The notes under the pieces are model-generated. The model was not told the origin of the DNA, made no database searches, and saw nothing but the letters and a program-made list of their open reading frames with translations. A program made the position numbers and the translations under genes. Shown here in pieces: positions 1 through 23,562 of a stretch of DNA of 26,230 nucleotides. The stretch comes from a virus, in IMG/VR virus record IMGVR_UViG_3300035542_000215. The stretch is one strand, 5' to 3'. How positions within the stretch are numbered: position 1 is the first letter of the stretch; each line of letters begins with the position of its first letter.

Positions 1-554
1 ATATGAAAAATAAACATTCAATACGAATATATGAATTACTTAAGCAGTATGAAAAAATAGGCAAGAGGAAGTTTGAATACTTTGAATTAAGGAATTTATT
101 AGGTTTAAAAAACGAATACAAAAGAAAACATGATTTTGAAAAAAAAGTAATAGAACCTGCAAAAAAAGAAATTAATGCTCAAACTGACATAACAATTGAT
201 TATACAAAGATAAGAAAAGGTAGGAGTATAATTGGATATAACTTTACAATAGAAAGAACCGTTTTAGAAGATGAAGAATATATAGACTATCTAAATGAAT
301 ACTACGATATAGATGATCTAAAAAAAAGAATGGGTATAGAAGATGAAAACTTTAACTCTAAACAAGTAATGGATATATTTGAAGCTGCTACAGAAAAAGT
401 AAATGAAAATGAGATTGATGTCTTTGAGTACATTAGAATAAACTATAACCATATAAAAGACAAAGCAAGAAATACCTATGCTTATTTATTAAAGGCCATA
501 AAAAATGATTATGCCTGTGCAGCAGATCAGATAAAATTTGATATGGAAATATAG
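1..554 (+). CDS. Rep_3-family plasmid replication initiator, C-terminal part (5'-truncated by window edge)
   Basis: SIRIYELLKQY...FELRNLLGL...Y..KHDFEKKVIEPAKKEIN..TDITIDY..IRKGRSI.GYNF matches the second winged-helix of Rep_3/RepB initiators. DnaA box and iterons follow immediately. The ATG at 3 is probably internal. Confidence 0.9.
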   Translation, partial: MKNKHSIRIYELLKQYEKIGKRKFEYFELRNLLGLKNEYKRKHDFEKKVIEPAKKEINAQTDITIDYTKIRKGRSIIGYNFTIERTVLEDEEYIDYLNEYYDIDDLKKRMGIEDENFNSKQVMDIFEAATEKVNENEIDVFEYIRINYNHIKDKARNTYAYLLKAIKNDYACAADQIKFDMEI

Positions 555-560
555 TTAATC

Positions 561-569
561 TGTGGATAA
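561..569 (-). promoter_or_regulatory. DnaA box (TTATCCACA)
   Basis: TGTGGATAA at 561-569 is a perfect consensus, 6 bp after the rep stop and next to the AT-rich stretch. Confidence 0.85.
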
Positions 570-570
570 C

Positions 571-650
571 TTTTCTTTATTATTTATTTATATAATTTAA
601 CTCTTTAACTAATTATAATACTTGTAACTAGTTTTAACTACTTTTAGGCA
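571..650. other. AT-rich putative DNA-unwinding element of the origin
   Basis: Very AT-rich, between the DnaA box and iterons, with TAACT at 598, 606, 625 and 635. Confidence 0.55.
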
Positions 651-687
651 AGTTGAAAGTGTTTAAAATGCTAGGCTACAGGAGAGA

Positions 688-1283
688 AATAACGACAAAA
701 ACTACTTTTAATGACGAAGGAAACTATGCTTAATAACGATAAAAACTACGTTATTGGCGACAAAAACTACTTTTTATAACGACAAAAACTACTTTTAATA
801 AAAAAAATAGCAAAAAAAATAGTAAAACTAGAAATAAGCAAAAAAATAAATAAAAAAGCAAGATAAATTATGTTTCTTGAAAAAGAAAACATGTTTTTTA
901 CCGTTTAAACCAGTTAATGACGAAGGAAACTACGCCTAATGACGACAAAAACTACGTTAACAACGAAAAAAACTATGTAAAATAGTAAAAATATCTATAT
1001 GCATCAAAAAAAAATATATAAATACAGTTTATTTATGAAAAAAAGCAAATAAAAAAAACAAATAAATACTTAAAATTTAAGGATATAACGACAAAAACTA
1101 CGCCTGATGACGAAAGAAACTACTTTAATAACGACAAAAACTACGTCGCTAAACATATATTTTTAACTTTTTGATCATAAAAAGCTGATAAAAATTAGAT
1201 TTATGTAGAAATTCAGGTGGATATGACGACAAAAACTACGCTAACAACGAAAAAAACTACGTTAATAACGACAAAAACTACGT
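688..1283 (+). repeat. Iteron array: 14 direct repeats of about 21-22 bp, consensus AATRACGACAAAAACTACGYY(T)
   Basis: Clusters at 688-796 (5 units), 916-978 (3), 1084-1147 (3) and 1222-1283 (3). Units are head-to-tail with a period of about two helical turns. Confidence 0.9.
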
Positions 1284-1303
1284 AAAAAAAGAAAGCTATA
1301 TAT

Positions 1304-1693
1304 TTATAACTTTCTTTCATCCCATAATTGGTCCACATATTTTTTTGCAAATTCTGCAATTTCAATTCTACTACTTAGATCTCCTTTGTAGATCTTTGGA
1401 ATTTCATATAAAGCACAAAGTCTATTCATCACTTTTACTCCAACAATAACTGCATCGTGATAAGATTTTCTCATTTTATCAAGATTTTTTATTTTATCAA
1501 GATAATCTTCACGAGACAATCTAAATCGTGATACATTTATGGAGTTTTCCATCTGTGCAACTCTTTTAACATATTCAGCACAGTCTTCCCCAAGCTCCTC
1601 TATAGTTTCTTTTTCCATTTCTCTACTTTCTTTATCATTATTTTTTTCAACAGCTTCTATTAAGCTTTTAATACCTCTTTTTATATCTTCCAT
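1304..1693 (-). CDS. DUF3232-like helical protein
   Basis: YV..V..ME....RFR...EDY.DKI.NLDK.R...HDAVI..V..MNRLC..Y.....Y.GD...R.EIAEF pattern; RBS AGGAGG. Confidence 0.7.
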   Translation of the reverse strand: MEDIKRGIKSLIEAVEKNNDKESREMEKETIEELGEDCAEYVKRVAQMENSINVSRFRLSREDYLDKIKNLDKMRKSYHDAVIVGVKVMNRLCALYEIPKIYKGDLSSRIEIAEFAKKYVDQLWDERKL

Positions 1694-1741
1694 TATTTCC
1701 TCCTATTTTTAACGCATTGCTGCTCCTTATATTCTATATTA

Positions 1742-1772
1742 TATTATATGCTTTTACAAAATATTATATTCC
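1742..1772 (-). promoter_or_regulatory. Recurrent promoter motif copy 1 (DUF3232 gene)
   Basis: GGAATAT-N13-AGCATATAATA on the minus strand. Confidence 0.8.
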
Positions 1773-1790
1773 AAAAAGACAAAAAAAGAT

Positions 1791-1821
1791 GGAATATAAA
1801 AAAATATTAATGCATATAATA
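1791..1821 (+). promoter_or_regulatory. Recurrent promoter motif copy 2 (HD-GYP gene)
   Basis: GGAATAT-N13-TGCATATAATA. Confidence 0.85.
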
Positions 1822-1850
1822 TAAAAATACATCAGATAGAGGGGGCATAA

Positions 1851-2699
1851 ATGGTAATTTCAGCTTATGAAGAAACGAAAAATAAAAATATTGTAAAAAA
1901 CAATATAATTGAATTTAAAAAAGAAAAAATAAATATTGAAGAAAAACTTATAAAAGAGCCTTTGATAGATAAGATAGCAGGTGATTATTCTTATAGATAT
2001 TATATAAAAAAAGAAGATGTAGAAAATGCTAAAAAAATTATTAATTATATAAAAAAAACACATATAGACAAAGAAAAAGCTAGTTGCAATGATTTAAAAA
2101 AAGATAAAGAGATTGAAGACATAATAAAAACAGCGATAAATGATGATAGGATTATAGAAAATTTAGTGTTGATAAAAAGATGCAATAACTATACTTTTTA
2201 TCATTCTTTAAATACTTTCAAATTATCGTTGTTGATAGGGTATGAAATAGGTATTAAACAAAATGATCTTCTAGACCTTGGATATTCAGCTATTTTACAC
2301 GATACAGGTAAAATTTTTGTTGATTGTAAAATGTTGAATAAAAAAAACAAACTAACAAAAGAAGAATTTGAAAATATTAAAAAACATCCATCTAAAGGAT
2401 ACACTTATTTAAAAAATAAATATAATTTTTCTAAAAAAATACTTGAAGGTGTTTTGTATCATCATGAAAGATGGAATGGGGAAGGATATGAGGCTAAAAT
2501 AAGTGGTGATAAAATACCAAATTATGCTTACATAATAGCCGTTGCTGATGTTTTCGACGCATTAACAACTAAGAGAATTTACAGAAATAAATGGAGTATT
2601 AATATTGCCTTGTCATATATTAATAAAAACAGTAGTGTTTTATTTTCTCCAGCAGTAGTTGAAAGCTTAAATAAAATCACAAAACACAAGCCAGGGTAA
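1851..2699 (+). CDS. HD-GYP domain phosphohydrolase (putative cyclic-dinucleotide phosphodiesterase)
   Basis: TFYHS...LHDTGK...LNK..KLT.EEF..IKKHP..GY...HHERWNGEGYE...IIAVADVFDALTTKRIYR; the GYP motif reads GYE. Confidence 0.9.
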   Translation: MVISAYEETKNKNIVKNNIIEFKKEKINIEEKLIKEPLIDKIAGDYSYRYYIKKEDVENAKKIINYIKKTHIDKEKASCNDLKKDKEIEDIIKTAINDDRIIENLVLIKRCNNYTFYHSLNTFKLSLLIGYEIGIKQNDLLDLGYSAILHDTGKIFVDCKMLNKKNKLTKEEFENIKKHPSKGYTYLKNKYNFSKKILEGVLYHHERWNGEGYEAKISGDKIPNYAYIIAVADVFDALTTKRIYRNKWSINIALSYINKNSSVLFSPAVVESLNKITKHKPG

Positions 2700-2867
2700 T
2701 AATAAAATAAGATTTATTAAAATAAAGTTATGGTATAAGAAATTTAATTTTTGATTTACATAATCATTTATGATAATATCATTATTGATAACGTGTTATC
2801 TGACACTATCAAATAACAAAAGAAGGCATTGTAAAAAATAAAAAGTGTTTTGTCAAGGGGGATTAAT

Positions 2868-3227
2868 GTGAGTAGAAAGCATGGAAATTTTCCAGCTCAA
2901 ATTAGCACAACTCAATTCGTTAAGCTGCATATATTTGACTTATTAAACAGAGGAGATAAGTACGGACAAAGTATTATCGATTCAATAGAAGAAAGATTGG
3001 AAGGGAAATGGAAGCCTTCTCCTGGAATGGTATATCCACTTTTAAGGCAGTTTGAAGAAGAGGGGTATATAAGGGGATCATGGCTATCCGAAAGCAAAAG
3101 AACTATAAGGTTATACAGCTTAACACAAGATGGATACAATCACTTTAACAGTGTAAAAAAGACATATATTGAAAAGCTTGAAAACTCAAAAAAAATTATA
3201 GAACTTACCATTAAATATATATACTAA
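2868..3227 (+). CDS. PadR-family transcriptional regulator
   Basis: YGQSIIDSIEERLEGKWKPSPGMVYPLLRQFEEEGYI...KRTIRLYSLTQDG. Start moved to GTG 2868 because RBS AAGGGGGA precedes it. Confidence 0.9.
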   Translation: MSRKHGNFPAQISTTQFVKLHIFDLLNRGDKYGQSIIDSIEERLEGKWKPSPGMVYPLLRQFEEEGYIRGSWLSESKRTIRLYSLTQDGYNHFNSVKKTYIEKLENSKKIIELTIKYIY

Positions 3228-3255
3228 AAAAAGTGTCTGTTAGGACACTTTTTTT
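3226..3255. terminator. Bidirectional intrinsic terminator
   Basis: A7-GTGTC-tgttag-GACAC-T7 between convergent genes. Confidence 0.75.
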
Positions 3256-5024
3256 ATTTTTATCTCTTTTTCTAGTTTTTCATTAACTTTTTTCTTTATT
3301 TTTTTATTTATATCAGAAGTTGAAATATAAATTTCATTTTCTTCACAGTACTTTTGGATATATTTTTGATTTTTTCTTGAAAGCTTACAATTTCCATATC
3401 CTTTAGCTTGAACTAAGCTTTTATTGTCATTACTGTTTAAACTAGTTTCAATCTCTAGACATCCTTCAATTTTCCTGTCTTTTTCTAAAAATGCTATTTG
3501 AGTAGATCCTCTTTTACAGTTGTAGGTATATCCAGTTACACAATTTTTTAGTGCATTTCCTACCATTCCTAATTCTTTTTGACTGTGTGCGTATCTTATG
3601 TAAACACCATTTCCTACTTCAAAATCTTTTAAAGATCTTACATTATTAAACTGCTCTTCGCTTAAATCTAAATTTCTCAAATATTGGGATGATTCGTCGT
3701 GAAGTTTTTGAATACATCCTTTTGTTTTAAAATTGGCACCTTTTTTGCGTATTTCAGAAATATTACATGCTGTATCTACTAATAGGTCAAATCTATGAGA
3801 TCCTAATAATTTTCTATAAATATCTTCTTCGCTAAAAACCTCTTTTAGCGTATCTATTTCAGAATTTGCATCGAATCCATTTATATCATACTTATAGGAG
3901 TCGTAGTGTTTTCCATGTAAAATATGACTTTCAAACCTTGTAAAGTTTTTTTTGTTCTTCCTAAACATTTTTTCTGTATCTTTAATGATATTCCTTCTTC
4001 TGTCTATATTTGTTAAATGGCAATGGTGCTCTTTAACCATTTCTAAAGCATACGGGTATTCCCAATAATATTTAAGAAGATTTTTAGGTATGTAATCTAC
4101 AGTGGTTTTGTTTATTTCTAAAAGATAATTAAATATTTCTTTTTTATTTTTATCCGTCTCTCCTTCTTTTAGGTACTTCCTAAAAATTCTATAAATTTTC
4201 CTTGGATACTTAATTGCCAAAGAATACTCATCAACTCTTCTTTCTATCTCTTTCTTATTGTAAAAAAATTCATCTTCATCGTTGTTTACCCTTTCAAGAT
4301 ACTCTTTATCCCCATCTAAGTCATATTTATACTGATAGTATTTAGATTTTATCATGTGGCATATATACATATCCCTGCGTGCTTTATTTATAGGTTTTCT
4401 TGTTTTATTTAGCCACTGCATATCTTCCCAGGACACCTCATAACCTTCTGGATATTTAACCCCAATTTCCTTACAAAATGTTCTTACAACTTTTTTTGGA
4501 ATAATTATATCTAACCTTGCTTTAGTATTGTTGCAATAAGGCAAAGTTACATTTTCAAACCCCTTAGCTTGGTTTAACGTATTATCTTTGCCTGGAATAT
4601 TGGATATGTAAATTACTGCTGTTCTTTTATCTAAGTCAAATCTTAATTTAAGCCTATAAACAGTATTTCCTACAACAGGATAGACTACTTCATATCCCTT
4701 TTCACTACTAGCTATTGTAAAAGAAAGGGTAAATTTATTGTTTTCCTTTACATCGTTAAACATAATAGTAGAAGCATTGAAGAATAGATCGTTTTGTGCC
4801 TTTCTTTTTACTATTTTTGTGTTTTCTTTTGAAAATACATTTTCACAATGCAAGCACTTAAAATCATTGTTTTTATCAAAATAATCTATTATATTAATAG
4901 AATGGCTTCTTGATATTTCTTTTAGTTTATAGGTTCTTTTGCAGCTATCACACTTTACCATAATGCAAAGCTCTCCATCATAAGTTCTTTCCCATAGCAA
5001 ATTCATTCTCCTAAATTTTTCCAT
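3240..5024 (-). CDS. PcfJ-domain protein with N-terminal CxxC...CxxC zinc-ribbon-like motif
   Basis: C-terminal KLHD...SQKELGMVGNALKNCVTGY...I.FL.....EGCLEI...LVQAKGYGN is the PcfJ-like signature; N-terminal CDSC and CLHC. Confidence 0.8.
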   Translation of the reverse strand: MEKFRRMNLLWERTYDGELCIMVKCDSCKRTYKLKEISRSHSINIIDYFDKNNDFKCLHCENVFSKENTKIVKRKAQNDLFFNASTIMFNDVKENNKFTLSFTIASSEKGYEVVYPVVGNTVYRLKLRFDLDKRTAVIYISNIPGKDNTLNQAKGFENVTLPYCNNTKARLDIIIPKKVVRTFCKEIGVKYPEGYEVSWEDMQWLNKTRKPINKARRDMYICHMIKSKYYQYKYDLDGDKEYLERVNNDEDEFFYNKKEIERRVDEYSLAIKYPRKIYRIFRKYLKEGETDKNKKEIFNYLLEINKTTVDYIPKNLLKYYWEYPYALEMVKEHHCHLTNIDRRRNIIKDTEKMFRKNKKNFTRFESHILHGKHYDSYKYDINGFDANSEIDTLKEVFSEEDIYRKLLGSHRFDLLVDTACNISEIRKKGANFKTKGCIQKLHDESSQYLRNLDLSEEQFNNVRSLKDFEVGNGVYIRYAHSQKELGMVGNALKNCVTGYTYNCKRGSTQIAFLEKDRKIEGCLEIETSLNSNDNKSLVQAKGYGNCKLSRKNQKYIQKYCEENEIYISTSDINKKIKKKVNEKLEKEIKIKKVS

Positions 5025-5074
5025 GTTTTCTCCTCCTTTTTTTGTGTAAAGACACTCCTTCTTTAATTATTCTT

Positions 5075-5105
5075 TATTATATGCAGGGGATATTTTTTAT
5101 ATTCC
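5075..5105 (-). promoter_or_regulatory. Recurrent promoter motif copy 3 (PcfJ-like gene)
   Basis: GGAATAT-N13-TGCATATAATA on the minus strand. Confidence 0.85.
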
Positions 5106-5127
5106 TATAAATTTGAAGGTGTTTAAT

Positions 5128-5156
5128 TTGACAGCTTTTGATTTGTGGGTTATACT
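5128..5156 (+). promoter_or_regulatory. sigmaA-type promoter
   Basis: TTGACA-17 bp-TATACT. Confidence 0.85.
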
Positions 5157-5171
5157 TTAAATAAGTTAATA

Positions 5172-5189
5172 GGTACTTCACTAAGTACC
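5172..5189. promoter_or_regulatory. Inverted repeat, candidate operator
   Basis: GGTACTT-cact-AAGTACC just downstream of the sigmaA promoter of an RHH-like gene. Confidence 0.5.
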
Positions 5190-5272
5190 AAAAAGAACCT
5201 TGGAAATTAAATAGAAAAGAAAAAACCAAAAACTCACTTTTTCATAATATAAGACAAAAAGGAGAAAATTAT

Positions 5273-6277
5273 ATGAAAAACAGTGAAATCAAAAAAAGGA
5301 ATAAATACAGTAAAAAAGCTTATAAAAATTTTTCTACAAAAATAAAGCCGACGCTATCAAGAGATCTAGATGAGATACAAGAAGATTTAGGGCTTTCAAA
5401 GCCTCAGCTTTTAAGAAAGCTTGTAGATGTTTATAAAGAAAACAAAAATATAGTAAAATCAAAAAAACTAAAAGGAGAAGATATTATGAAAAATGAAAGA
5501 ATGATAGATAAAATGAATAGCAAAGAGGGAATGTGGATACTAGGAAGAAATATTTTAGCAGAAAAGGCTTTTGGTGATTTAATCCCAGATAATTTAAGAT
5601 ACCAAGCCTATAAAATAAATAAAAATGGAAAATATTTCTTAATATATAGTGTAACTGACGGGATTCCAAATATTAAAGCATACAAAGAAGAAAAAATTAC
5701 ATTTAACAAAAAAGGATCTAAGCTGGAAATAAGACTAGATGGAGAAGTTGAATTTTCCAATGTATACATTGGAGATACACCAGAAGAAGAAAGGGAATAT
5801 TTAGAAGAATTTTTAGAAGATTGGGATCTTACAAAAGAGGATATAGAAAAATATTCAAAAACATTTGAAAAACAAAAGCTAGAAGAAGTAGATATTTTAG
5901 TTTTACCAGAAGAAAAAGATGATAGAGAAACATCAGAGGAAGCAATGCAGCATCCTTTGATTAAAGAGATGAAAAGTGAAAAAGGAGTTTGGTTTAAAGA
6001 AAACAACTTGGTTGCACAGGCAATATTTGGAAGTAAGACAGATGAAAAGCTTCCTCCACGAGCCGTGAATTTAAAGAAAATTGGAGAAAAAATAATTGCT
6101 AAGTTTTGTGGTCAAGAAACAATTGTAAAAACATATCATGAATCAGATATTGTATTTGAAATAGATGATGATTCAGTTGTTATGATAAGAAAAGAAAAAG
6201 CTTACGATGAAGAAATAGAGGAAAGCAAAAAAATACCTAAAGATACAAAAAATTATCCAACTTTAAAAATTTTATAA
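5273..6277 (+). CDS. Hypothetical protein: N-terminal ribbon-helix-helix-like domain plus two internally repeated domains
   Basis: FSTKIKPTLSRDLDEIQEDLGLSKPQLLRKLVDVY is CopG/RHH-like; MNSKEGMW...AFG and MKSEKGVW...IFG are duplicated segments. Confidence 0.6.
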   Translation: MKNSEIKKRNKYSKKAYKNFSTKIKPTLSRDLDEIQEDLGLSKPQLLRKLVDVYKENKNIVKSKKLKGEDIMKNERMIDKMNSKEGMWILGRNILAEKAFGDLIPDNLRYQAYKINKNGKYFLIYSVTDGIPNIKAYKEEKITFNKKGSKLEIRLDGEVEFSNVYIGDTPEEEREYLEEFLEDWDLTKEDIEKYSKTFEKQKLEEVDILVLPEEKDDRETSEEAMQHPLIKEMKSEKGVWFKENNLVAQAIFGSKTDEKLPPRAVNLKKIGEKIIAKFCGQETIVKTYHESDIVFEIDDDSVVMIRKEKAYDEEIEESKKIPKDTKNYPTLKIL

Positions 6278-6284
6278 GAAAAAC

Positions 6285-6311
6285 AAAGCCCTATTAAAAG
6301 GGGCTTTTTTT
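6285..6311 (+). terminator. Intrinsic terminator
   Basis: AAAGCCC...GGGC followed by T7. Confidence 0.75.
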
Positions 6312-6313
6312 AT

Positions 6314-6344
6314 GGAATATTTAAAGAGGTTAATGCATATAATA
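6314..6344 (+). promoter_or_regulatory. Recurrent promoter motif copy 4 (hpf)
   Basis: GGAATAT-N13-TGCATATAATA. Confidence 0.85.
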
Positions 6345-6381
6345 AATTATGCATAAAAAATAAAAAAAGAGAGGTATTATT

Positions 6382-6909
6382 ATGAAATTAGACATTTTTG
6401 GAAAAAATATTGCTGTTACCGAATCTTTGGAAAAAACATTAGAAGAAAAAATGAAAAAGCTAAATAAGCACTTAGGAAAAGAAACTACAGTGAGAATTGT
6501 TCTAAGAGTTGAAAAATTAAGACACATTGTAGAAATAGTTATTCCAGTATCAAAAAACGTGATAAAAGTAGAAGAATCAGCTGCTGATATGTATGAAACG
6601 ATTGACAAGGCAGTAAGTGTTACAGAAAGACAGTTGAAAAAATACAAAAATAAAATAGATAACAAAAAACATTCAAAAGAAACAATAAGAAAAAACTTTG
6701 ATAGTAAAAATCAAGATGAAAAATCAGAGAGAAAGATTGTAAAGAGAAAAGTATTTTCTTTAAAACCTATGAGTATAGAAGAAGCTATTTTACAAATGGA
6801 AATGCTGGGACATAGTTTTTTTGTTTTTTTAAATGCTGATACTGAAGAAACTAATGTAATATATAATAGAAAAGATCATAACATAGGATTAATAGAAACA
6901 AATTTTTAA
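6382..6909 (+). CDS. hpf: Long-form ribosome hibernation promoting factor (RaiA/HPF family)
   Basis: GKNIAVTESL...KM.KL.K...VEI.IP......EE...DMYETID......ERQLKKYK.K plus C-terminal IVKRKVF.LKPMSIEEAILQMEMLGHSFFVF.N......NVIY.RKD...GLIE. Confidence 0.95.
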   Translation: MKLDIFGKNIAVTESLEKTLEEKMKKLNKHLGKETTVRIVLRVEKLRHIVEIVIPVSKNVIKVEESAADMYETIDKAVSVTERQLKKYKNKIDNKKHSKETIRKNFDSKNQDEKSERKIVKRKVFSLKPMSIEEAILQMEMLGHSFFVFLNADTEETNVIYNRKDHNIGLIETNF

Positions 6910-6916
6910 ATGACAC

Positions 6917-6957
6917 ACAAAAAAAGCCTTTTAGTTTTAGCTAAAGGGCTTTTTTGT
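6917..6957. terminator. Bidirectional intrinsic terminator
   Basis: A-tract-GCCTTTTAG...CTAAAGGGC-T-tract between convergent genes. Confidence 0.8.
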
Positions 6958-6972
6958 TTAGAAAGGTATAAG

Positions 6973-7275
6973 TCATGCTAATCTTTGTTCTAAAGCTTTT
7001 CGATCAACTCTCATATCGAAAAATTTTAATTCATTAACATCTTTTTTTTCAATTTTTATTTCTACTACTCCATTGAATATTATATTTAGAATGTCTCCTG
7101 GTTTTGCCTTGGTAACTCTGCTTATAAAATCTTTTCTTTCTCCTAAAGAATTTACAATCATAGCTGCCGTAGTTTTTCCTTTTCCGTTCATTGTTGTGTT
7201 TACTTCTTCTACAAATTTTCTGCTCAAAGTATACTCTAAGCTTGTCCCCATAATGAAATATGTTCTTTTATACAT
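6973..7275 (-). CDS. Small hypothetical protein (paralogue of 7304-7579)
   Basis: RBS AGGAGG; aligns end to end with its neighbour. Confidence 0.75.
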   Translation of the reverse strand: MYKRTYFIMGTSLEYTLSRKFVEEVNTTMNGKGKTTAAMIVNSLGERKDFISRVTKAKPGDILNIIFNGVVEIKIEKKDVNELKFFDMRVDRKALEQRLA

Positions 7276-7303
7276 TTTTTCCTCCTATGTTTTAGTTCTA
7301 CCA

Positions 7304-7579
7304 CTATTTGTTTATTATTCTCATACTTACAAATTTAACTCTTTCTTCATCAAGCTTTAAGAAATAAAATTTTACTACATTGTATAGGGTTATGTTTAAA
7401 AGGGCCCCTTTACAAGCATTTTTTAACTTAGTATGCAGTTCAAAATTTCTACCTAATGAAGATGCTACTTTTTTAGCAAATTCTTTTCCTTTAGTGTTAG
7501 ATATCTCCCTTGCCTCTTCTATGCATTTTTGAGACAATTCATATTGAATACTAGTTCCATTAATTAATGAACAACTCAT
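7304..7579 (-). CDS. Small hypothetical protein (paralogue of 6973-7275)
   Basis: RBS AGGAGG; preceded by the recurrent motif. Confidence 0.75.
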   Translation of the reverse strand: MSCSLINGTSIQYELSQKCIEEAREISNTKGKEFAKKVASSLGRNFELHTKLKNACKGALLNITLYNVVKFYFLKLDEERVKFVSMRIINK

Positions 7580-7636
7580 GTTGCACCTCCTATGTTTTTT
7601 TGAGACTAAAAAGTCTCTCCTTTAATTTATTATTCT

Positions 7637-7667
7637 TATTATATGCAGAGGGTTAATCTTATATTCC
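7637..7667 (-). promoter_or_regulatory. Recurrent promoter motif copy 5
   Basis: GGAATAT-N13-TGCATATAATA on the minus strand. Confidence 0.85.
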
Positions 7668-7686
7668 TTTTTTTTAAATTTTTTTT

Positions 7687-7717
7687 GGAATATAAAATAT
7701 ATCTTTTGCATACTATA
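7687..7717 (+). promoter_or_regulatory. Recurrent promoter motif copy 6 (NT5C gene)
   Basis: GGAATAT-N13-TGCATACTATA. Confidence 0.8.
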
Positions 7718-7767
7718 GTTTATAATAAATAGGCAGCACTAAGTGCACATAAAACAAGGAGGATCTT

Positions 7768-8310
7768 ATGGATAAAAAAACTATACTTATAGATGTTGAT
7801 GGAGTCATAGCACACACTATGGAGAAAACTATCGATTTATATAATAAGAGAGGTATAAATAAGGTTAAGCTAGAAGACTTACAAGAATATGATTTACATA
7901 AAAACTCTGGAGTAGATAAAAGCATTTACGATATATTTAGAGAAAAGTTCTTTTTTAGAAACTTAAAAATTGACCAAGCAGCTAAAAAGATTATAAAAAA
8001 ACTACATGATGAAGGATATGATATAATATTTTCTACAGCTATCCTAAAAGAAGGATATACCGATAGACACGAATGGTTACAAGAACATTTTCCTTATATA
8101 CCAGATAATAACTATATGTTAGGCTCTAGAAAAGATTTGCTAAAAGGTGATGTTATGATAGATGATTCACCTAAAAACCTATTAAATAGTTCATGTGAGA
8201 TGGTTTTTTGTATGGACAGACCTTGGAACAGAAGTCTTAAAGATAAAAAAATTGTAAGGGTGTTTTCTTTTGATGACATTTACAATTATATCAAAGAAAA
8301 AGACAGCTAA
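7768..8310 (+). CDS. 5'(3')-deoxyribonucleotidase, NT5C/HAD family
   Basis: ILIDVDGVIA (HAD motif I), FFRNL, WLQEHFPYIP, KDLLKGDVMIDDSPKNL, PWNR. Confidence 0.9.
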   Translation: MDKKTILIDVDGVIAHTMEKTIDLYNKRGINKVKLEDLQEYDLHKNSGVDKSIYDIFREKFFFRNLKIDQAAKKIIKKLHDEGYDIIFSTAILKEGYTDRHEWLQEHFPYIPDNNYMLGSRKDLLKGDVMIDDSPKNLLNSSCEMVFCMDRPWNRSLKDKKIVRVFSFDDIYNYIKEKDS

Positions 8311-8323
8311 AACTGTCTTTTTT
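8297..8323. terminator. Bidirectional intrinsic terminator
   Basis: AAAAAGACAG-ctaaaa-CTGTCTTTTTT between convergent genes. Confidence 0.75.
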
Positions 8324-10889
8324 ATGTTTTTTCTATTTTCTTTTTGTAGTGTTCATACCTAATTATGTAAGGACAATCATTTTTACTGCAATCTAAAATG
8401 TAATATTTATTGAAGAAATTCTCCTGTTTTATATGGAAGAAAATATGTTGGTTTAAAAATATTTCAAGATCTTGCACCTTAACATATGCTTCTGGAAATC
8501 TTCTTTCTATCATCTCTTTTACTGAAACGTATGGTTCAAATTTTAATTTTTCATTTAAATACTCATCAATTTTACGAATTAAAGATTTCTTAATTTTTAG
8601 ATCTTCCTTCAAGCAATAACCGCTCTTATTAACTTTAACTAAAATCTTTTTATATATTGAAAAAAATGAGTTAGTTGTTTCTATAGGTAGCATGTATTTA
8701 TCAGTGAAAATTTTCTTGGCATATTTTTCAGATAATATAATTTCTTTTTTAAAAAGATTCTTAAATAACTTGTAAAAATTAACATGTTCATTATCTGTTC
8801 TTTTTTTTGAGATATGAACTCCCCTAGCAAATTCATACTCCTCTTTAAAGAAGTGGTTTACTATGTTATATAAAGACCTATCATCTTCTATTCCTATTTT
8901 TTTCAACTTATCTTTACCGTTGTTAAATAAAATGTATCTATTAGTATATTGGTTGATCAGGCTGTCTTCTATTAACTTTTTAATGAATTTTATATCTTCA
9001 GCTCCCAAATCTATCATGTCTACATATGTTAATATTTGGTTATTATCCCAAAAGATAACCTTGTTACTTTCACTTACAACAGAGTGAAACTTTTTAATAC
9101 TCCAATTTAAAATATATTGACCATATTCCAAGGTTATAATCTTTCCCTCATCTTTAACAAAGGCATCCAATATTTCAACATCGGTTCTTACCGGTTGATC
9201 ATTATAGACGATTTTCTTATTTTTAAATGAAAATTTGTTTTTTAAATATACTTTTAGATAATTAAAAAGTAAGTCTTCACTATCTACGTTTGATTCTTCT
9301 AATTCAAGATCTTTTTCTATGTAGTTATAAACATCCTTTGCTGTAATATATCCAAAAGTATAATCACGGTTGTTTTTTTCCAATAATTCATTAATAAAAT
9401 TTTCTATTTTTTCTTTAGTTTTCTTATTTATATAAATATTGTTTTTATGAATTAAAGAATTATCTTTCCATGAAACAATATTTTCTACATCCTTAAGAAT
9501 AGTTTTCCATGTAGTATCGATTTTTTCATCCACAACGTTTTCGACAATTATTGAATACAAATACTTCAGTCTTTCAAGGTCGTTTCTTTGATTTTTTATA
9601 CCAAACATAAAACATTTTTCAACAAGAAAAGAATACATTTGATGTTTTAATACCTTATCTTTATAAAATACATTCATCCCTTCTTTATATCCATTTTTCA
9701 AAAGAAATTCCCTTAAACACTCCTTGTCAAAATTTGTAAAAGAAATTTTTTCATATAAATAACTTAAATAATCTTCTTCAATCTCTATGTCAAATATATC
9801 ATCCAAATTTCTCAATAAATCTTCAAACTCTTTTTCGTATTTATTTGGATTCGGTCCGTAAGCGAATACCTTGTAATTTTCTAACCAGTGAAAATTTTTA
9901 ATACTAAAATTTTTCAAAACATCTTGAAATATCTTTATCAAGTTTTTATCCTTCAGTACGTTAAAAAAAATATCTTCTTTTACAAATAAAGGTTTTTCTA
10001 GATTTTTAGTTTCCAAATAATCTTCATGTAATTTTAGGAAGTTATAAAGCTTTAACATAACTTCTTCTTTTTTTCTTCTTATTGATTCACGGCTTTTAAA
10101 TTTTTCGTTAGCTATATCAATAAGTGGTTTTTCATTCACAAGATTATCATAGTATATTTTGAAACCATCACTTTCAATCAACTTCTTCATTCTTTTTTTT
10201 ATATAAAAATGTAGAGGTGCTGACATGTAGTTTATTACTTGAAAAAAATCATCAGGATTTCTAATTTGTTCAAAAAAATTAATATAATCAAACCTTACAT
10301 TAAGTTTTTTTTCCAAATCTTTTCCCGTCGCTATATTGTAACTTCTTAAAACTTTTGAAATGTTTTTATTAAATATATGCTCTACTTTGATGTCATAAAA
10401 ATCTTCGTTTATCTTGTTTTCTAAAAAGCTATATTTTCTATGTTCTAATAACTTGTCATTGTTGAACAAGCTAAAATACTTTTCTATGAAAATTTCCTTC
10501 TTTTTCTTTCCTACTCATGGAATCTCATCTAAATTATTTAAGTCTATTTTCGAAATTTCATATAGAGAGTAGCAATTTAAATTTTTATTTAAATGCTCTA
10601 TAATTTTAAGGTATTTATTTTCATTAAAAACTATCCTTAAAGGTAAGTATTCATGACTATGCTTTATATTCTCCATACTTGAATATAAGTAAGCCTCTAC
10701 GTCTTTGCTTAATTCTTTATACAATCTTTTTTTTATATTTTTAACAAAAGGTTTAAGTTTTTTATCCTTTTCATAAGTAGAAAACTTTATGTTAATAATA
10801 TCTTTTAATTTTTTATAATTTCTTGCTTTACAGTATTCTATAAAAGGTTTAAAGTATGGTTCACAAAAAACACTTTTTATTTCATTCAT
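8322..10889 (-). pseudogene. About 855-codon protein with RNAP alphaCTD-like/HhH repeats and a sigma region-4-like HTH, interrupted by one in-frame TGA (10515-10517)
   Basis: ORFs 10515-10889 and 8322-10469 share a frame and read LDEIP*VGKKKKEIFIEKYFSLFNNDK across the junction. PLIDIANEKFKSRESIRRKKEEVMLKL resembles a sigma4 HTH. RBS AGGGGG lies before 10889. Confidence 0.65.
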
Positions 10890-11067
10890 AAATACAACCC
10901 CCTATTGTTACATATTATATTTCACCCAACTTTTTTTATGATATCATGCATATTATAAATTAACAATACAAAAGTGATTTACATTTCACCACTGATTAAT
11001 GAATAAACTCTCAATTGCTTTTATTTATAGCATCTTAAATATTTCTAACAATTTATTAATATTTTAA

Positions 11068-11098
11068 GGAATATAAGATTTTACACTTGCATATAATA
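11068..11098 (+). promoter_or_regulatory. Recurrent promoter motif copy 7
   Basis: GGAATAT-N13-TGCATATAATA. Confidence 0.85.
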
Positions 11099-11156
11099 AA
11101 CCATAATAAAAAAGGAGCGTATTTATTTACGCAAATAAAAAAAATAGGAGGATATT

Positions 11157-11624
11157 ATGCACGGTAATATTTATCAAGTTTCAGAGGATAAAAACTTAGA
11201 TGGTTTGTCGGCATGGAAAATTGAGGAACAAATGCCTTTTGCAGACTATGTATGTGAAACAGGAGAAAAAGAGAAACTACTAAGACATAAAAGAGAAGTA
11301 GTTTCACTAAAAGAAAGAGTGGGAAAATACGGGGTAAAAGTTGATGAGAAGGAAAGTACTATAGTTTTTAAAAAGGGATTTAAGGAAAGATATTTTAAAA
11401 ACAAGTTTAAATCTTTTAAAAAACTTACAAATGATTTAACTTTAGAAGCTTTTAGCGGCGAAACATCGTCAAATGGTAGCATTCACTTAATAGAAACAGC
11501 TCTAGAGGATAAATTTAGTGCTTACATATATGATGAGTATCCTAAAACCCTTGATGATTTTGTGAGAGAGCTAAAAGAAGAAAAGACGTATTATTTAGGA
11601 GAAATTTTTGGTTATAAATGGTAA
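11157..11624 (+). CDS. Hypothetical protein
   Basis: 155-aa ORF with RBS AGGAGG; first gene of a 4-gene run. Confidence 0.8.
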   Translation: MHGNIYQVSEDKNLDGLSAWKIEEQMPFADYVCETGEKEKLLRHKREVVSLKERVGKYGVKVDEKESTIVFKKGFKERYFKNKFKSFKKLTNDLTLEAFSGETSSNGSIHLIETALEDKFSAYIYDEYPKTLDDFVRELKEEKTYYLGEIFGYKW

Positions 11625-11639
11625 ACAAAGGAGATAATT

Positions 11640-12284
11640 ATGGGACAATATTATGAAAGTCTAATAATTGACGAAAAAACAATAGAAGATCAACCAGGAA
11701 AAGCAATTATAAAAAAAGAAATATTTTTAAAATACGAACTTGAATCAAGGAAATTAACGGAACATTCTTGGGTGAATAATTCAGAAGTTAACAACGTACT
11801 TCTTTATATTTTAAATAATCCCTGTAAAATAGCATGGGTAGGTGATTATGCAGATGAAACATATGATGCATATGAAAAAGCAAAAAAAAGCAAGCCATTA
11901 TCTGAAGATGAATATTTTGATATTTACAATGCTGTTTATAGTGATAATGCAGGAGCAAAAAAATTAAATAATCCTTGCAATGAAAAATATAACAAGGAGA
12001 AGCTTCAAAAGTTACTCCTTGGTAAAAAGAAAAAATACTTGATCAACCATACCATAAATGAATATTTTGAGATTGGTAAATATATAGAAAAAAATGATAG
12101 AAATGGTTGGTGCTTACATCCACTACCTATATTAACTGCTTGTGGAAATGGACAAGGCGGAGGAGACTATATATCACCAGTAGGACAAGAAGATGTTGGA
12201 AAATGGGCTTACGATTTAATTGAGTTTTCTTATGACTTACCAGGGGATAACTATCAAGAAGTGGTGTATTTCTTTGTAGATTAA
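11640..12284 (+). CDS. Hypothetical protein of a phage/MGE-type family (MGQYY...EHSW...WVGDYAD...HPLPILTA.GNG.GGGDY...VG.WA.D)
   Basis: RBS AAGGAG; motif-rich, enzyme-like sequence; function not recognised. Confidence 0.75.
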   Translation: MGQYYESLIIDEKTIEDQPGKAIIKKEIFLKYELESRKLTEHSWVNNSEVNNVLLYILNNPCKIAWVGDYADETYDAYEKAKKSKPLSEDEYFDIYNAVYSDNAGAKKLNNPCNEKYNKEKLQKLLLGKKKKYLINHTINEYFEIGKYIEKNDRNGWCLHPLPILTACGNGQGGGDYISPVGQEDVGKWAYDLIEFSYDLPGDNYQEVVYFFVD

Positions 12285-13214: not shown

Positions 13215-13245
13215 GGAATATTTTAATAGACAACTGCATATAATA
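13215..13245 (+). promoter_or_regulatory. Recurrent promoter motif copy 8
   Basis: GGAATAT-N13-TGCATATAATA. Confidence 0.85.
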
Positions 13246-13272
13246 AATAGAGATAAAAGAGGAGGTTTTTTC

Positions 13273-14028
13273 ATGAAGAAAAAAATAATAAAGATTGCAG
13301 CTACATTAACTATTTCAGCCCTTATTTTTATAGCAGGAGCTTCGGTTCAAGTTGCTACAGGTAAAATAGTGAACATAAACAATTTATCTAAAATTGAAAC
13401 ACTAGAACAGGATTTCACAGATAATAGCTTACCTAATTTGTTAAATGAAATATATTTAGAAGCCCAGTATTTTAACGAAATTGCCCCATCTTTAAGTTAT
13501 GAAATAAAAAAATATTATATTGAGGATGATAAGGACTTTGAAAATTATTCTAATACATTTCACGGTTTTAAAGAAGATCTTGATAAGAATCATTTGAAAA
13601 TAGTAGATGATAAGCTAAGAGGAATAATAGTAACAGCTGATTTGCAGTACTTTCTAAATAATTACAAGGAAGATTTGAGTTATGATAGCAAAGATTACTT
13701 ATCTTTCAGGTTATATGAAGAAAAAAACCATCTTTACAATAAAAACTTCGACACTATTGACATGGACGAAGTAGTTAAAAGGATAAATTTGATTAACGAA
13801 AGATTACGCACAGACACAATGTATTTCAATGAATACAAAATATTAAAAAAATATTACATCGACGTTTTTACAGGGGAAAGTCATGATTATTATTTTGATT
13901 TTTCGAAAAATCAGCTTAGACCGTATGCTGTTAAAATGTATGAAAAATATTCGGCAAGAAAAGATGAAATCGGTGAGATATCCAAGGAAATATTAGAAAA
14001 TGGACCATGGCAGCTATCTATTAATTAA
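13273..14028 (+). CDS. Exported or membrane-anchored hypothetical protein
   Basis: Start moved to ATG 13273 (RBS GGAGG, downstream of terminator and motif); N-terminus MKKKIIKIAATLTISALIFIAGA is signal-peptide-like. Confidence 0.75.
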   Translation: MKKKIIKIAATLTISALIFIAGASVQVATGKIVNINNLSKIETLEQDFTDNSLPNLLNEIYLEAQYFNEIAPSLSYEIKKYYIEDDKDFENYSNTFHGFKEDLDKNHLKIVDDKLRGIIVTADLQYFLNNYKEDLSYDSKDYLSFRLYEEKNHLYNKNFDTIDMDEVVKRINLINERLRTDTMYFNEYKILKKYYIDVFTGESHDYYFDFSKNQLRPYAVKMYEKYSARKDEIGEISKEILENGPWQLSIN

Positions 14029-16535: not shown

Positions 16536-16566
16536 GGAATATTATTTGTGCAAAGTGCATATAATA
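16536..16566 (+). promoter_or_regulatory. Recurrent promoter motif copy 9 (spoVG-virD4)
   Basis: GGAATAT-N13-TGCATATAATA, starting just after the recD2 stop. Confidence 0.85.
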
Positions 16567-16597
16567 CTCTAAGAAATAAAAAAAGAGAGGTAATATT

Positions 16598-16876
16598 ATG
16601 AGTGAAAAAAAAGTATCTAATATTAAAATTTTTAAAAGAAGAGATGAAAAAAAGTCTGAAGATGATTATTTTTTAGGAACTGTAAGTTTTTTACTATTTG
16701 ATTCATTTTTAGTGCATGGGGCAAGATTATTTGATAAAGAGGGAAATAGGTATGTTTTAATGCCTAGTAGAAAATTAAAGGACAAGTGGTTGGATATTTG
16801 CCATCCTACTACTCAAGAATTAAGAAAAGAAATAGAAAAAGAGATTTTTGAAATTTATGACAAAATAACTGATTAA
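16598..16876 (+). CDS. spoVG: SpoVG-family nucleic-acid-binding protein
   Basis: SF.L.DSFLVHG.RL....G..YV.MPSRK.....DICHP.TQELR..I. Confidence 0.88.
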   Translation: MSEKKVSNIKIFKRRDEKKSEDDYFLGTVSFLLFDSFLVHGARLFDKEGNRYVLMPSRKLKDKWLDICHPTTQELRKEIEKEIFEIYDKITD

Positions 16877-19002: not shown

Positions 19003-19020
19003 GAATTAGACCTCCTGATT

Positions 19021-19048
19021 TTGACAGATATTCTATATGTGTTATTCT
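19021..19048 (+). promoter_or_regulatory. sigmaA-type promoter with extended -10
   Basis: TTGACA-16 bp-TATTCT, with TGn before the -10. Confidence 0.65.
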
Positions 19049-19130
19049 TAAATTAACAAAGAAATATTAAAAATCAAAATATCTTACACAAAAGGAGGTT
19101 TATGCAACCTATTTAGGTTGTAAAAATCAT

Positions 19131-20508: not shown

Positions 20509-20539
20509 GGAATAATTTAAGTTATTAATGCATACTATA
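20509..20539 (+). promoter_or_regulatory. Recurrent promoter motif copy 10 (exonuclease-recG)
   Basis: GGAATAA-N13-TGCATACTATA. Confidence 0.75.
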
Positions 20540-20573
20540 AAAATAGTCAATAAATTGAGGAGGGAGTAGTTTT

Positions 20574-21431
20574 ATGCGGATATCAGGAGAAAAAATGGAA
20601 AAAGCTTTAGTAAACTCAAAAACATATATAAGCATTGATATAGAAACTACTGGTTTTTCAATTAAAAAAGGTGCAGAAATAATAGAAATTGCAGCCGTAA
20701 AAATAGATACAGTTAATAAAAAGAGAACAGGCGTTTTTCAAACCTTCGTGAAGCCAGTAAAAAGAAAAACTATACCCAAAAAAATTGTAGAATTAACAAA
20801 TATAAACCAAGACATGGTTAAAGATGCCCCATTTATAGAATCAGCTTTAAGAAGCTTAAATAATTTTATCAAAAATTATCCACTGGTTTTTCACAATGCA
20901 AGTTTTGACTGGGATAGGTTTTTAGATCCTTTATTTAGAAAACAGGGGATAGTAAAAAATAACTTAATAATAGATACCCTTCCAATCGCCAAAGTGTGCT
21001 TTCCAAATATAAAAAGTAGAAAGCTTCAAAGTGTATGCAACCACTTAGGTTATAACACTAGCTTTCATAGGGCTATAACAGATGCAAGAGCTACTGCTAC
21101 GGTAGCTTATCATTGCAAGAAGATATTGGAAAAAAAATATGAAATTAAACCTGAAGAAAATAAAGAAATTCAAATGTCAATATCAACAGAAGATAAAACT
21201 TTACCCGATTTAAGAATCAAGAGTTTTAACTACTGGGAGAAAGCAAAATATAAAAGAGTTTATGTCCTAACTACATGGGGGAATGTCTTTTATGACTTTA
21301 AAACAAAAGAATGGTCCGTTAAAAATGCTACGGTTGAAAAAACTATAGATTTTAAAAAAATAGAAGACAAGTTTTTAAAGGCTTCAAGACTTAAGTCTTT
21401 AAAAGAAGCTGAACAAAAATTTGTATCATAA
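20574..21431 (+). CDS. DEDDh 3'-5' exonuclease (DnaQ/PolC-exonuclease-like)
   Basis: SIDIETTG, EIIEIAAVK, LVFHNASFD, IDTL, HRAITDA. Confidence 0.9.
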   Translation: MRISGEKMEKALVNSKTYISIDIETTGFSIKKGAEIIEIAAVKIDTVNKKRTGVFQTFVKPVKRKTIPKKIVELTNINQDMVKDAPFIESALRSLNNFIKNYPLVFHNASFDWDRFLDPLFRKQGIVKNNLIIDTLPIAKVCFPNIKSRKLQSVCNHLGYNTSFHRAITDARATATVAYHCKKILEKKYEIKPEENKEIQMSISTEDKTLPDLRIKSFNYWEKAKYKRVYVLTTWGNVFYDFKTKEWSVKNATVEKTIDFKKIEDKFLKASRLKSLKEAEQKFVS

Positions 21432-23470: not shown

Positions 23471-23501
23471 GGAATATTTAGGCTGGTAAATGCATATAAT
23501 A
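23471..23501 (+). promoter_or_regulatory. Recurrent promoter motif copy 11 (surface-protein gene)
   Basis: GGAATAT-N13-TGCATATAATA. Confidence 0.85.
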
Positions 23502-23562
23502 TAATGAATTTGTTTTCAAGCTATATTTAAATAGCTAGAAAAATAAAACTTAGGAGGTAAAG

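Follow-up and report, generated by a model that had tools for sequence, protein, structure and literature searches.

Several 5' leaders described in Bacillus, namely those of cry3A, aprE, hbs and gsiB together with the SP82 polypurine element, protect their transcripts by means of a bound ribosomal subunit that blocks 5'-to-3' decay by enzymes of the RNase J1 type. In hbs and gsiB, the protection is provided by a strong ribosome-binding site (RBS), the aprE leader studied by Hambraeus in 2002 reportedly relies on a 5' stem-loop plus ribosome binding, and the SP82 element studied by Hue in 1995 is said to act as a Bacillus 5' stabiliser; PMC3997798 cites this work. Standby sites (the de Smit and van Duin model; tisB) are unstructured upstream sites that capture the 30S subunit before the real RBS. 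To our knowledge, stabilisers consisting of a Shine-Dalgarno (SD) sequence without a start codon come from a handful of single genes (cry3A, inlA and a phage RNA). Such start-less stabilising SD sequences (STAB-SDs) act through 30S binding, which blocks RNase J1 (PMC4113751), and one has been proposed to lie directly after the transcription start site of Listeria inlA (PMC5449094). Here, a recurrent 5' leader module was analysed in IMG/VR record IMGVR_UViG_3300035542_000215, a stretch of 26,230 nt (the whole of which is hereafter called the window) that forms the end of a ~101 kb plasmid contig (JGI Ga0376494_000041). The module consists of a first, SD-like purine box (the decoy), a small hairpin, an A-rich linker and the real RBS, and is located behind a recurrent promoter; it is real and goes beyond chance, as confirmed by the positional, comparative and covariation results given below.

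All six leader sequences quoted in the original prediction were found where it had placed them and on the strands that it had named (Table 1). The promoter-like site in question, GGAATAT-N14-GCATATAAT, has 9 exact matches in the window (0 expected). A relaxed pattern gives 11 copies, 4 of which lead into the canonical decoy-hairpin leader, 2 into degraded copies and 5 straight into the real RBS. In the four canonical leaders (those of 1693(-), 5024(-), 7579(-) and 11157(+)), an A-rich tail is followed by AAGGA, by a stem that starts from the next G and closes with C (3, 4, 6 and 5 bp, respectively; loops of 4-6 nt), by an A-rich linker and by AGGAGG, from which 5-7 nt lead to the ATG. The two variants, 7768(+) and 23563(+), retain the hairpin and lack an intact AAGGA. 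In minimum free energy (MFE) structures computed using ViennaRNA, the window leaders form the claimed hairpin, and neither purine box is paired in the MFE or the centroid fold of any of the four canonical leaders or of 7768; weak long-range alternatives in the two variant leaders appear in MFE folds only and are absent from the centroids. The hairpin of leader 1693 (1714-1723, - strand) also encloses a 2-codon ATG-CGT-TAA, located 5 nt past the decoy SD and unique among the leaders, which is a possible 'start-stop' mini-frame as read from the sequence.

The anatomy of the module was derived from 26 distinct leaders chosen for their two SD-like boxes and without reference to any stem. These comprise 4 leaders from the window, 19 from elsewhere on the same plasmid and 3 from relatives, and were collected from ~53 kb upstream of the window, reached via overlapping public contigs, and from one metagenome scan. 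The decoy starts 13-17 nt past the -10 element and reads AAGGAG followed by U, C or A, never by G; it is the most conserved part of the leader (exact AAGGA(G) in 23 of the 26). The hairpin, of 3-7 bp, begins at the final G of AAGGAG and closes with a G-C pair, and its loop is composed of 51% U, 38% A and 4% G. The linker that follows measures 7-18 nt, mostly 10-13 nt, and is 78% A, and the spacing from the decoy GGA to the true GGAG is 22-35 nt (median, 26 nt). No start-like codon (ATG, GTG or TTG) is present 4-12 nt past the decoy in 18 leaders, and in the remaining 8 it lies inside the hairpin; judged on these codons, the decoy box lacks a usable start codon, as is demanded of a STAB-SD. The promoter alone would place the transcript start ~7 nt after the -10 element, and the decoy would then lie at about +7 to +10, behind an A-rich single-stranded tail of ~8-10 nt. 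The initial transcribed bases are semi-conserved among leaders. AAGGAG is complementary to the canonical anti-SD CUCCUU; the form (A/U)AGGAGG taken by the real SD in 22 of the 26 leaders implies a canonical anti-SD, but the 16S 3' end was not found in the sole linked genome, a Tissierellia metagenome-assembled genome (MAG) described below. As in the two window variants, the hairpin of a third plasmid leader (L151:2422) is in its usual place and the decoy is not intact. Overall, the module is estimated to be used ~25-30 times on the ~100 kb plasmid.

On the same plasmid, ~17 kb before the window start, the gene for transfer-messenger RNA (tmRNA) is directly preceded by the promoter and a leader AAGGA-GCAC-ttat-GTGT (L138:18750-19215), behind which come a real SD and a frame of three codons, ATG AAA AGA TGA. 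The cassette therefore serves a non-coding RNA too.

The original prediction had cautioned that the stems are short, and this was justified for leaders 1693 and 5024, whose stems of 3-4 bp have energies near those of shuffled sequences (-2.5 kcal/mol, z = -1.0, and -2.4 kcal/mol, z = -0.1, respectively) and are unconvincing alone. The fold z scores of leaders 7579 and 23563 were -2.4 and -2.0, respectively, and the MFE of leader 11157 was -6.6 kcal/mol. Because thermodynamics alone is insufficient, the case rests on position and recurrence. In the positional test, Watson-Crick stems beginning exactly from the base after AAGGA were counted and compared with those in shuffles of each leader's own inter-box segment. 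The four window stems total 18 bp versus 4.4 bp in shuffled leaders, with none of 50,000 shuffles reaching 18, and the shuffle probability of all four being at least 3 bp is 4e-4; the recurrence on which the original prediction had relied is thus an enrichment over shuffled leaders. Stems of at least 3 bp are present in 25 of the 26 leaders (shuffle mean, 3.4) and stems of at least 4 bp in 21 (shuffle mean, 0.95; maximum, 6 in 5000 shuffles), and shifting the assumed stem start gave a sharp peak at offset 0 only. Real sequences gave the same picture: AAGGAG was followed by a stem of at least 4 bp in 18 of 23 cases behind the promoter versus 2 of 109 elsewhere on the plasmid (Fisher p = 8.5e-16).

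The stems also covary while pairing is maintained, as the original prediction had claimed, with 97.5% of the cells paired in an alignment made by the covariance model. This model (R1) was seeded with seven leaders of equal geometry, six from outside the window and one, 5024, from within it. It recovered the non-seed window leaders 11157 (30.2 bits, E = 5e-4) and 7579 (22.8 bits, E = 0.016), and in the same search of the window it missed the 3-bp leader of 1693 and the variant 7768. Only three weak matches were obtained in 551 kb of unrelated control loci, and two of these are true relatives. The covariation score was 0.69 versus 0.24 in shuffles (0 of 500) and at most 0.16 in slid controls. 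Pairs 2-4 exhibit three or more Watson-Crick types each, the counts including UA 11, CG 7 and AU 2 at pair 2, GC 14 and AU 5 at pair 3, and CG 7, UA 5 and AU 4 at pair 4; in a joint set with the element of the MAG, 97.8% of the cells were paired (0 of 500 shuffles). A permissive cmscan of the whole window placed the leader in no Rfam 15 family, in line with the earlier suggestion of an undescribed element, and its one match was at chance level (E = 0.82) and unrelated to the leaders.

The architecture is shared by a distant relative. Scanning viral contigs with the promoter yielded none, and among genome contigs scanned with the promoter alone, the listed loci were single, apparently chance matches, except L054. 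This locus, found as a control match, is a contig of a Tissierellia MAG (G001), which contains the same promoter class, mostly as GGAATAT-N14-TGCGTATTAT, and about ten leaders of the same architecture (e.g. AAGGA-GTGTT...AACAC followed by an A-rich stretch and GGAGG) on several contigs with 34-35% G+C. Proteins encoded on these contigs are 41-52% identical to plasmid proteins. The box, the stem position and the spacings are kept in the MAG leaders, and the tail and linker sequences differ from those of the plasmid; the maintenance of the architecture despite diverged leader sequences favours selection over a neutral relic. Two more leader copies were found on a contig with 39% G+C that also carries genes for a GyrB/ParE-type topoisomerase and SLH-domain proteins. 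Elsewhere in the MAG (L193:18457-18641, contig C139), one small gene is preceded by a tandem array of three units ~78 nt apart, each made up of the promoter and a conserved downstream segment of ~48 nt.

By analogy with the Bacillus leaders, the decoy may be a 5'-proximal start-less SD of the STAB-SD kind that docks the 30S subunit as a roadblock or on standby, with the hairpin blocking initiation there. This is the preferred reading, and its probability is put at roughly 0.4. The STAB-SD analogy drawn in the original prediction fits as far as it could be checked: the start is unusable, the box looks like a good SD complement, and its position past the -10 element would put it near the 5' end. 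In the proposed scheme, the decoy would pair with the 16S anti-SD and a 30S subunit would dock within ~10 nt of the 5' end, where it would hinder RNase J1-type enzymes from degrading the RNA in the 5'-to-3' direction. The same subunit might also wait on standby upstream of the real RBS, at a distance of one ribosome footprint (the median of 26 nt). By occupying the place that a start codon needs, the hairpin would prevent initiation at the decoy and insulate the decoy from the linker. Such a location at the P-site codon position would account for the fact that the decoy is almost never present without a hairpin, and the footprint-sized spacing and the unstructured A linker suggest to us an added standby or hand-over role.

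Several points weigh against 30S docking of this kind. The transcription start on which the 5'-proximal position depends is taken from the promoter only. The decoy is 22-35 nt from the real RBS, compared with ~100 nt in cry3A, and a docked 30S subunit might compete with initiation. A pure roadblock would explain neither the constrained linker length nor the fact that the decoy (AAGGAG + Y, never AAGGAGG) is more uniform than the true SDs. A hairpin without an intact decoy is present in three leaders of the plasmid (two within the window), and the hairpin may thus have a separate role. As the leaders are paralogous, the covariation cells are not independent events, and the covariation alignments were fitted to the structure model. 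In addition, according to what is reported of the work of Sharp and Bechhofer, a hairpin ~14 nt from the 5' end is too internal for a classical 5'-terminal protective stem-loop.

It is possible, though on the unlikely side, that the decoy and the real SD at their fixed spacing form a two-box address for an element-encoded, trans-acting anti-SD small RNA (sRNA). This would be compatible with ribosome docking, and one RNA would then throttle the whole regulon, sparing single-SD host mRNAs. The constrained geometry and the unusually uniform decoy fit a specific partner, and the MAG contains a candidate of ~148 nt (L191:2245-2392) with the same promoter type, a terminator end and no obvious coding frame. 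UUCCUC and CCUCC boxes abound in it, UUUAAUUCCUC boxes recur, and one set is displayed in the loop of a CCGGA/UCCGG hairpin. However, the duplex energies of this candidate with the leaders are no better than those obtained with a shuffled candidate, no homologue was found in the plasmid DNA examined, and complementarity weighs little because SD boxes pair with any pyrimidine-rich RNA. The non-coding parts of the window contain no free anti-SD boxes resembling an sRNA gene, and no convincing anti-SD RNA was found among the promoter-driven units without open reading frames in the relatives L123 and L129, the unit in L129 folding no better than shuffles. A wider proposal, itself unlikely, is that the module is an address tag that marks a sigma-E-like regulon of ~40 transcripts for separate translation and is read, by way of the fixed spacing of its two boxes (close to the footprint of one ribosome), by an element-encoded partner, candidates for which are an element-encoded anti-SD sRNA or the HPF, SpoVG or tmRNA of the plasmid. 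If this is true, the plasmid could favour or throttle its own mRNAs together in a ribosome-short (e.g. sporulating) host, with single-SD host mRNAs left untouched.

Another interpretation, distinctly unlikely, makes the hairpin the functional part and AAGGA a secondary feature or a by-product of a duplicated promoter-plus-RBS cassette. The hairpin might then be a processing or anchor point that turns into a protective 5' stem-loop once the A-rich tail has been trimmed, or it might insulate the real RBS and so keep it free of structure. Hairpins do occur without an intact decoy in 7768(+), 23563(+) and L151:2422, whereas the decoy is accompanied by a hairpin in 25 of the 26 leaders and almost never stands alone. 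The leaders also look like copied cassettes, with their semi-conserved initial bases and a -35 subtype, GGAATATAA, that is tied to long leaders, and the cassette is present even ahead of the tmRNA gene. However, AAGGA(G) is the leader part with the highest conservation, it is retained in the MAG element with changed flanks, where a neutral relic should have decayed, and stems of 3-4 bp (-2.4 kcal/mol) are poor nuclease barriers.

A role as dual-site target of a GGA-binding protein, either of the CsrA type or, for example, the plasmid SpoVG, is very unlikely. A dimer would bridge both GGAs and repress translation, and the GGA pairs, 22-35 nt apart, are inside the bridging window of 10-63 nt (optimum, >18 nt) with the second GGA belonging to the real SD. 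In B. subtilis, repression of hag involves two sites and one of them overlaps the SD (PMC7652899), the Tissierellia MAG encodes CsrA, and the window encodes SpoVG. CsrA sites typically present GGA in a hairpin loop and conform to an ACA...GGA...GU consensus, with RUACARGGAUGU obtained by SELEX (the systematic evolution of ligands through exponential enrichment; PMC7652899). In the leaders, by contrast, GGA adjoins the 5' side of the stem and never lies in the loop, the loops being U/A-rich, which weakens the hint in the original prediction that the box is a CsrA-type recognition word. Some leader variants have no GGA at all (AAGAGG, AAAGAG and AGGCA), and a crude regular-expression search of ~100 kb of plasmid DNA did not find the CsrA signature.

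That the module is a functionless product of chance or base composition is effectively refuted by the enrichment over both shuffled and real-sequence controls: two of the window's four stems, at 3-4 bp, have folding energies indistinguishable from those of shuffles, and in A/T-rich sequence the probability of finding at least 3 bp of stem at a fixed position is ~0.2 when G-U pairs are allowed, but the positional enrichment is strong, the stems covary and the module is retained in a diverged element.

Other candidate functions were considered and rejected. An intrinsic terminator or attenuator does not fit, because what comes after the hairpin is A-rich (78% A) and not a run of U, and the opposite strand has its T run ahead of the hairpin. 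A switch that sequesters the SD, such as an RNA thermometer or a riboswitch platform, is incompatible with the unpaired state of both SD boxes. A common DNA operator was rejected because the stems differ in sequence and keep their pairing, and a leader-peptide system because a mini-frame (M-R-stop) is found in leader 1693 only.

Other assemblies of the same replicon overlap the 27% G+C window over 8364 nt with 0 mismatches. The genes identified across the overlapping assemblies include those for Rep_3, ParA/ParB, a type IV coupling protein and helicases as well as those for ribonucleotide reductase, a ligase, HPF, SpoVG and tmRNA. Megablast searches of PLSDB plasmids and INPHARED phages gave no match to positions 1-12000 of the window.

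The recurrent promoter has a -10 element of CATATAAT and an ATA within the -35 element. In Clostridioides difficile, sigma-E and sigma-K have the -10 element in common and ATA at -35 is characteristic of sigma-E (PMC3789822), and the recurrent promoter looks, by its sequence, like a mother-cell sporulation promoter of the sigma-E type. The Tissierellia MAG has a near-identical site, GGAATAA-N13-GCATATAAAT (L175:1421-1450), at a distance of ~60 nt upstream of spoIVA, and no clear promoter match was found in the region upstream of spoIID. The ~40 promoters of the plasmid may be read by a sporulation sigma factor of the host or by an element-encoded sigma factor. Leaders driven by this promoter have a bimodal length distribution (~24-41 nt and 52-67 nt). 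Of 22 long, decoy-hairpin leaders, 20 go with the -35 subtype GGAATATAA, versus 4 of 12 short ones (Fisher p = 9e-4). The subtype GGAATA(A/T)TT is mostly on short leaders (8 of 12). These two -35 subclasses may represent temporal classes, strength classes or two cassette lineages. The real SD of the short leaders stands where the long leaders have the decoy, so that the constant feature of the regulon would be an SD close to the 5' end.

A second repeated promoter-like element, of the sigma-A type (CCT(C/T)CTGA(A/T)(A/T)TTGACAGAT...), was also noticed. It is sometimes located ~50 nt upstream of a GGAATAT promoter, and the public plasmid contigs break at one copy; those upstream of the window terminate at the repeat ...TTGACAGATTTTTTAGCTG. 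A non-coding stretch of ~200 nt (L157:6465-6679, the same as L161:2690-2890) contains mutually complementary GGGGAGGG / CCCTC / CCCCTC blocks. It is flanked by two AATAATGTYGATAWCAAC repeats, and the same repeat is found behind promoters in the relatives L123 and L131.

Table 1. Positions of the leaders, short-leader comparators and other promoter-linked features (window coordinates unless a locus is named; minus-strand parts are given in reading direction)
Feature	Extent	Strand	Promoter	Upstream box	Stem	Loop	Linker	Real SD	Start codon	Remark
Leader 1, DUF3232 gene 1304-1693	1691-1772	-	1772-1743	AAGGA 1728-1724	GCA 1723-1721 / TGC 1716-1714	GCAA	1713-1705	AGGAGG 1704-1699	ATG 1693-1691	
Leader 2, PcfJ-like gene 3240-5024	5022-5105	-	5105-5076	AAGGA 5060-5056	GTGT 5055-5052 / ACAC 5047-5044	CTTT	5043-5038	AGGAGG 5037-5032	ATG 5024-5022	
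Leader 3, 91-aa gene 7304-7579	7577-7667	-	7667-7638	AAGGA 7622-7618	GAGACT 7617-7612 / AGTCTC 7607-7602	TTTT	7601-7592	AGGAGG 7591-7586	ATG 7579-7577	
Leader 4, 155-aa gene 11157-11624	11068-11159	+	11068-11097	AAGGA 11112-11116	GCGTA 11117-11121 / TACGC 11128-11132	TTTATT	11133-11145	AGGAGG 11146-11151	ATG 11157-11159	Gene is the first of a same-strand gene run
Variant leader, NT5C gene 7768-8310	7687-7770	+	7687-7716, -10 GCATACTAT	Degenerate AGGCA 7731-7735	GCAC 7736-7739 / GTGC 7743-7746	TAA	7747-7756	AGGAGG 7757-7762		Hairpin at standard position; GGA-A box absent
Variant leader, BspA-type leucine-rich repeat (LRR) gene from 23563	23471-23565	+	23471-23500	TTTCA, no purine box	AGCTAT 23519-23524 / ATAGCT 23531-23536	atttaa	23537-23551	AGGAGG 23552-23557		
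Short-leader comparator, HD-domain gene 1851	1791-1853	+						GAGGGGG		Promoter leads to real SD; no hairpin
Short-leader comparator, hibernation factor HPF gene 6382	6314-6384	+	-35 variant GGAATATTT							
Short-leader comparator	13215-13275	+						GAGGAGG		Real SD 14 nt after -10
Short-leader comparator, SpoVG gene 16598	16536-16600	+								
Short-leader comparator, RNase T-like gene 20574	20509-20576	+	-35 variant GGAATAATT							
MAG candidate sRNA unit	L191:2209-2392 (contig C218)									Promoter-driven; strong intrinsic terminator; fold z = -4.4
Sigma-A-type repeated element	19011-19060	+								
Sigma-A-type repeated element	L157:9880-9915									
Sigma-A-type repeated element	L154:7185-7215									
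Sigma-A-type repeated element	L161:10555-10597									

In this element, the decoy SD, the clamp hairpin, the A linker and the real RBS form one part that is coupled to a single promoter subclass and has been retained in a distant relative. Should ribosome docking prove true, the module would be a natural portable 'expression cassette' for low-GC Firmicutes and a clean system for separating the roadblock, standby and sRNA-target roles of 5' SD boxes, and the dozens of natural compensatory stem variants are built-in controls. The module also bears on translation management by a mobile element that has its own HPF, tmRNA and SpoVG.

Among described systems, the closest in kind are the STAB-SD of cry3A (Agaisse & Lereclus 1996; RNase J1 block, Mathy et al. 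2007; reviewed in PMC4113751) and the one proposed for Listeria inlA. The leaders share with these the low-GC Gram-positive setting and a non-initiating purine box that lies ahead of the real RBS in the 5' untranslated region, probably near the 5' end. Unlike in cry3A, the box always stands directly before a covarying hairpin, is 22-35 nt rather than about 100 nt from the real RBS, and recurs in ~25-30 transcripts that belong to one promoter class and one replicon; stabilisation by the present leaders is proposed only by analogy. What they would have in common with the aprE, SP82, hbs and gsiB leaders is that a 5'-proximal structure is combined with ribosome binding and the body of the mRNA need not be translated. 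The aprE stem-loop occupies the extreme 5' end and its ribosome site is the real RBS, whereas the leaders described here are composed of a tail, a decoy SD, a small internal hairpin and a real RBS.

The dual-site leaders regulated by CsrA (B. subtilis hag and E. coli glgC; PMC7652899) are similar in having two GGA boxes at bridging distance, the downstream one over the SD. They differ in that the upstream GGA of the present leaders is outside the loop and has no ACA/GU context, and a cognate protein is only hypothetical here. The streptococcal csRNAs and the c4 RNA of P1/P7, which are anti-SD RNAs with multiple targets, provide a parallel in that one pyrimidine-box RNA could pair with the purine boxes of many leaders. 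The unstructured upstream box ahead of the real RBS is also reminiscent of a standby site, for which 30S capture is proposed here, although classical standby sites serve a structured RBS and contain no SD look-alike, whereas the real RBS of these leaders is already unstructured. As read from the sequences, what is new relative to the literature is a leader, apparently of the STAB-SD or 5'-stabiliser type, that is standardised, clamped by a hairpin and used regulon-wide.

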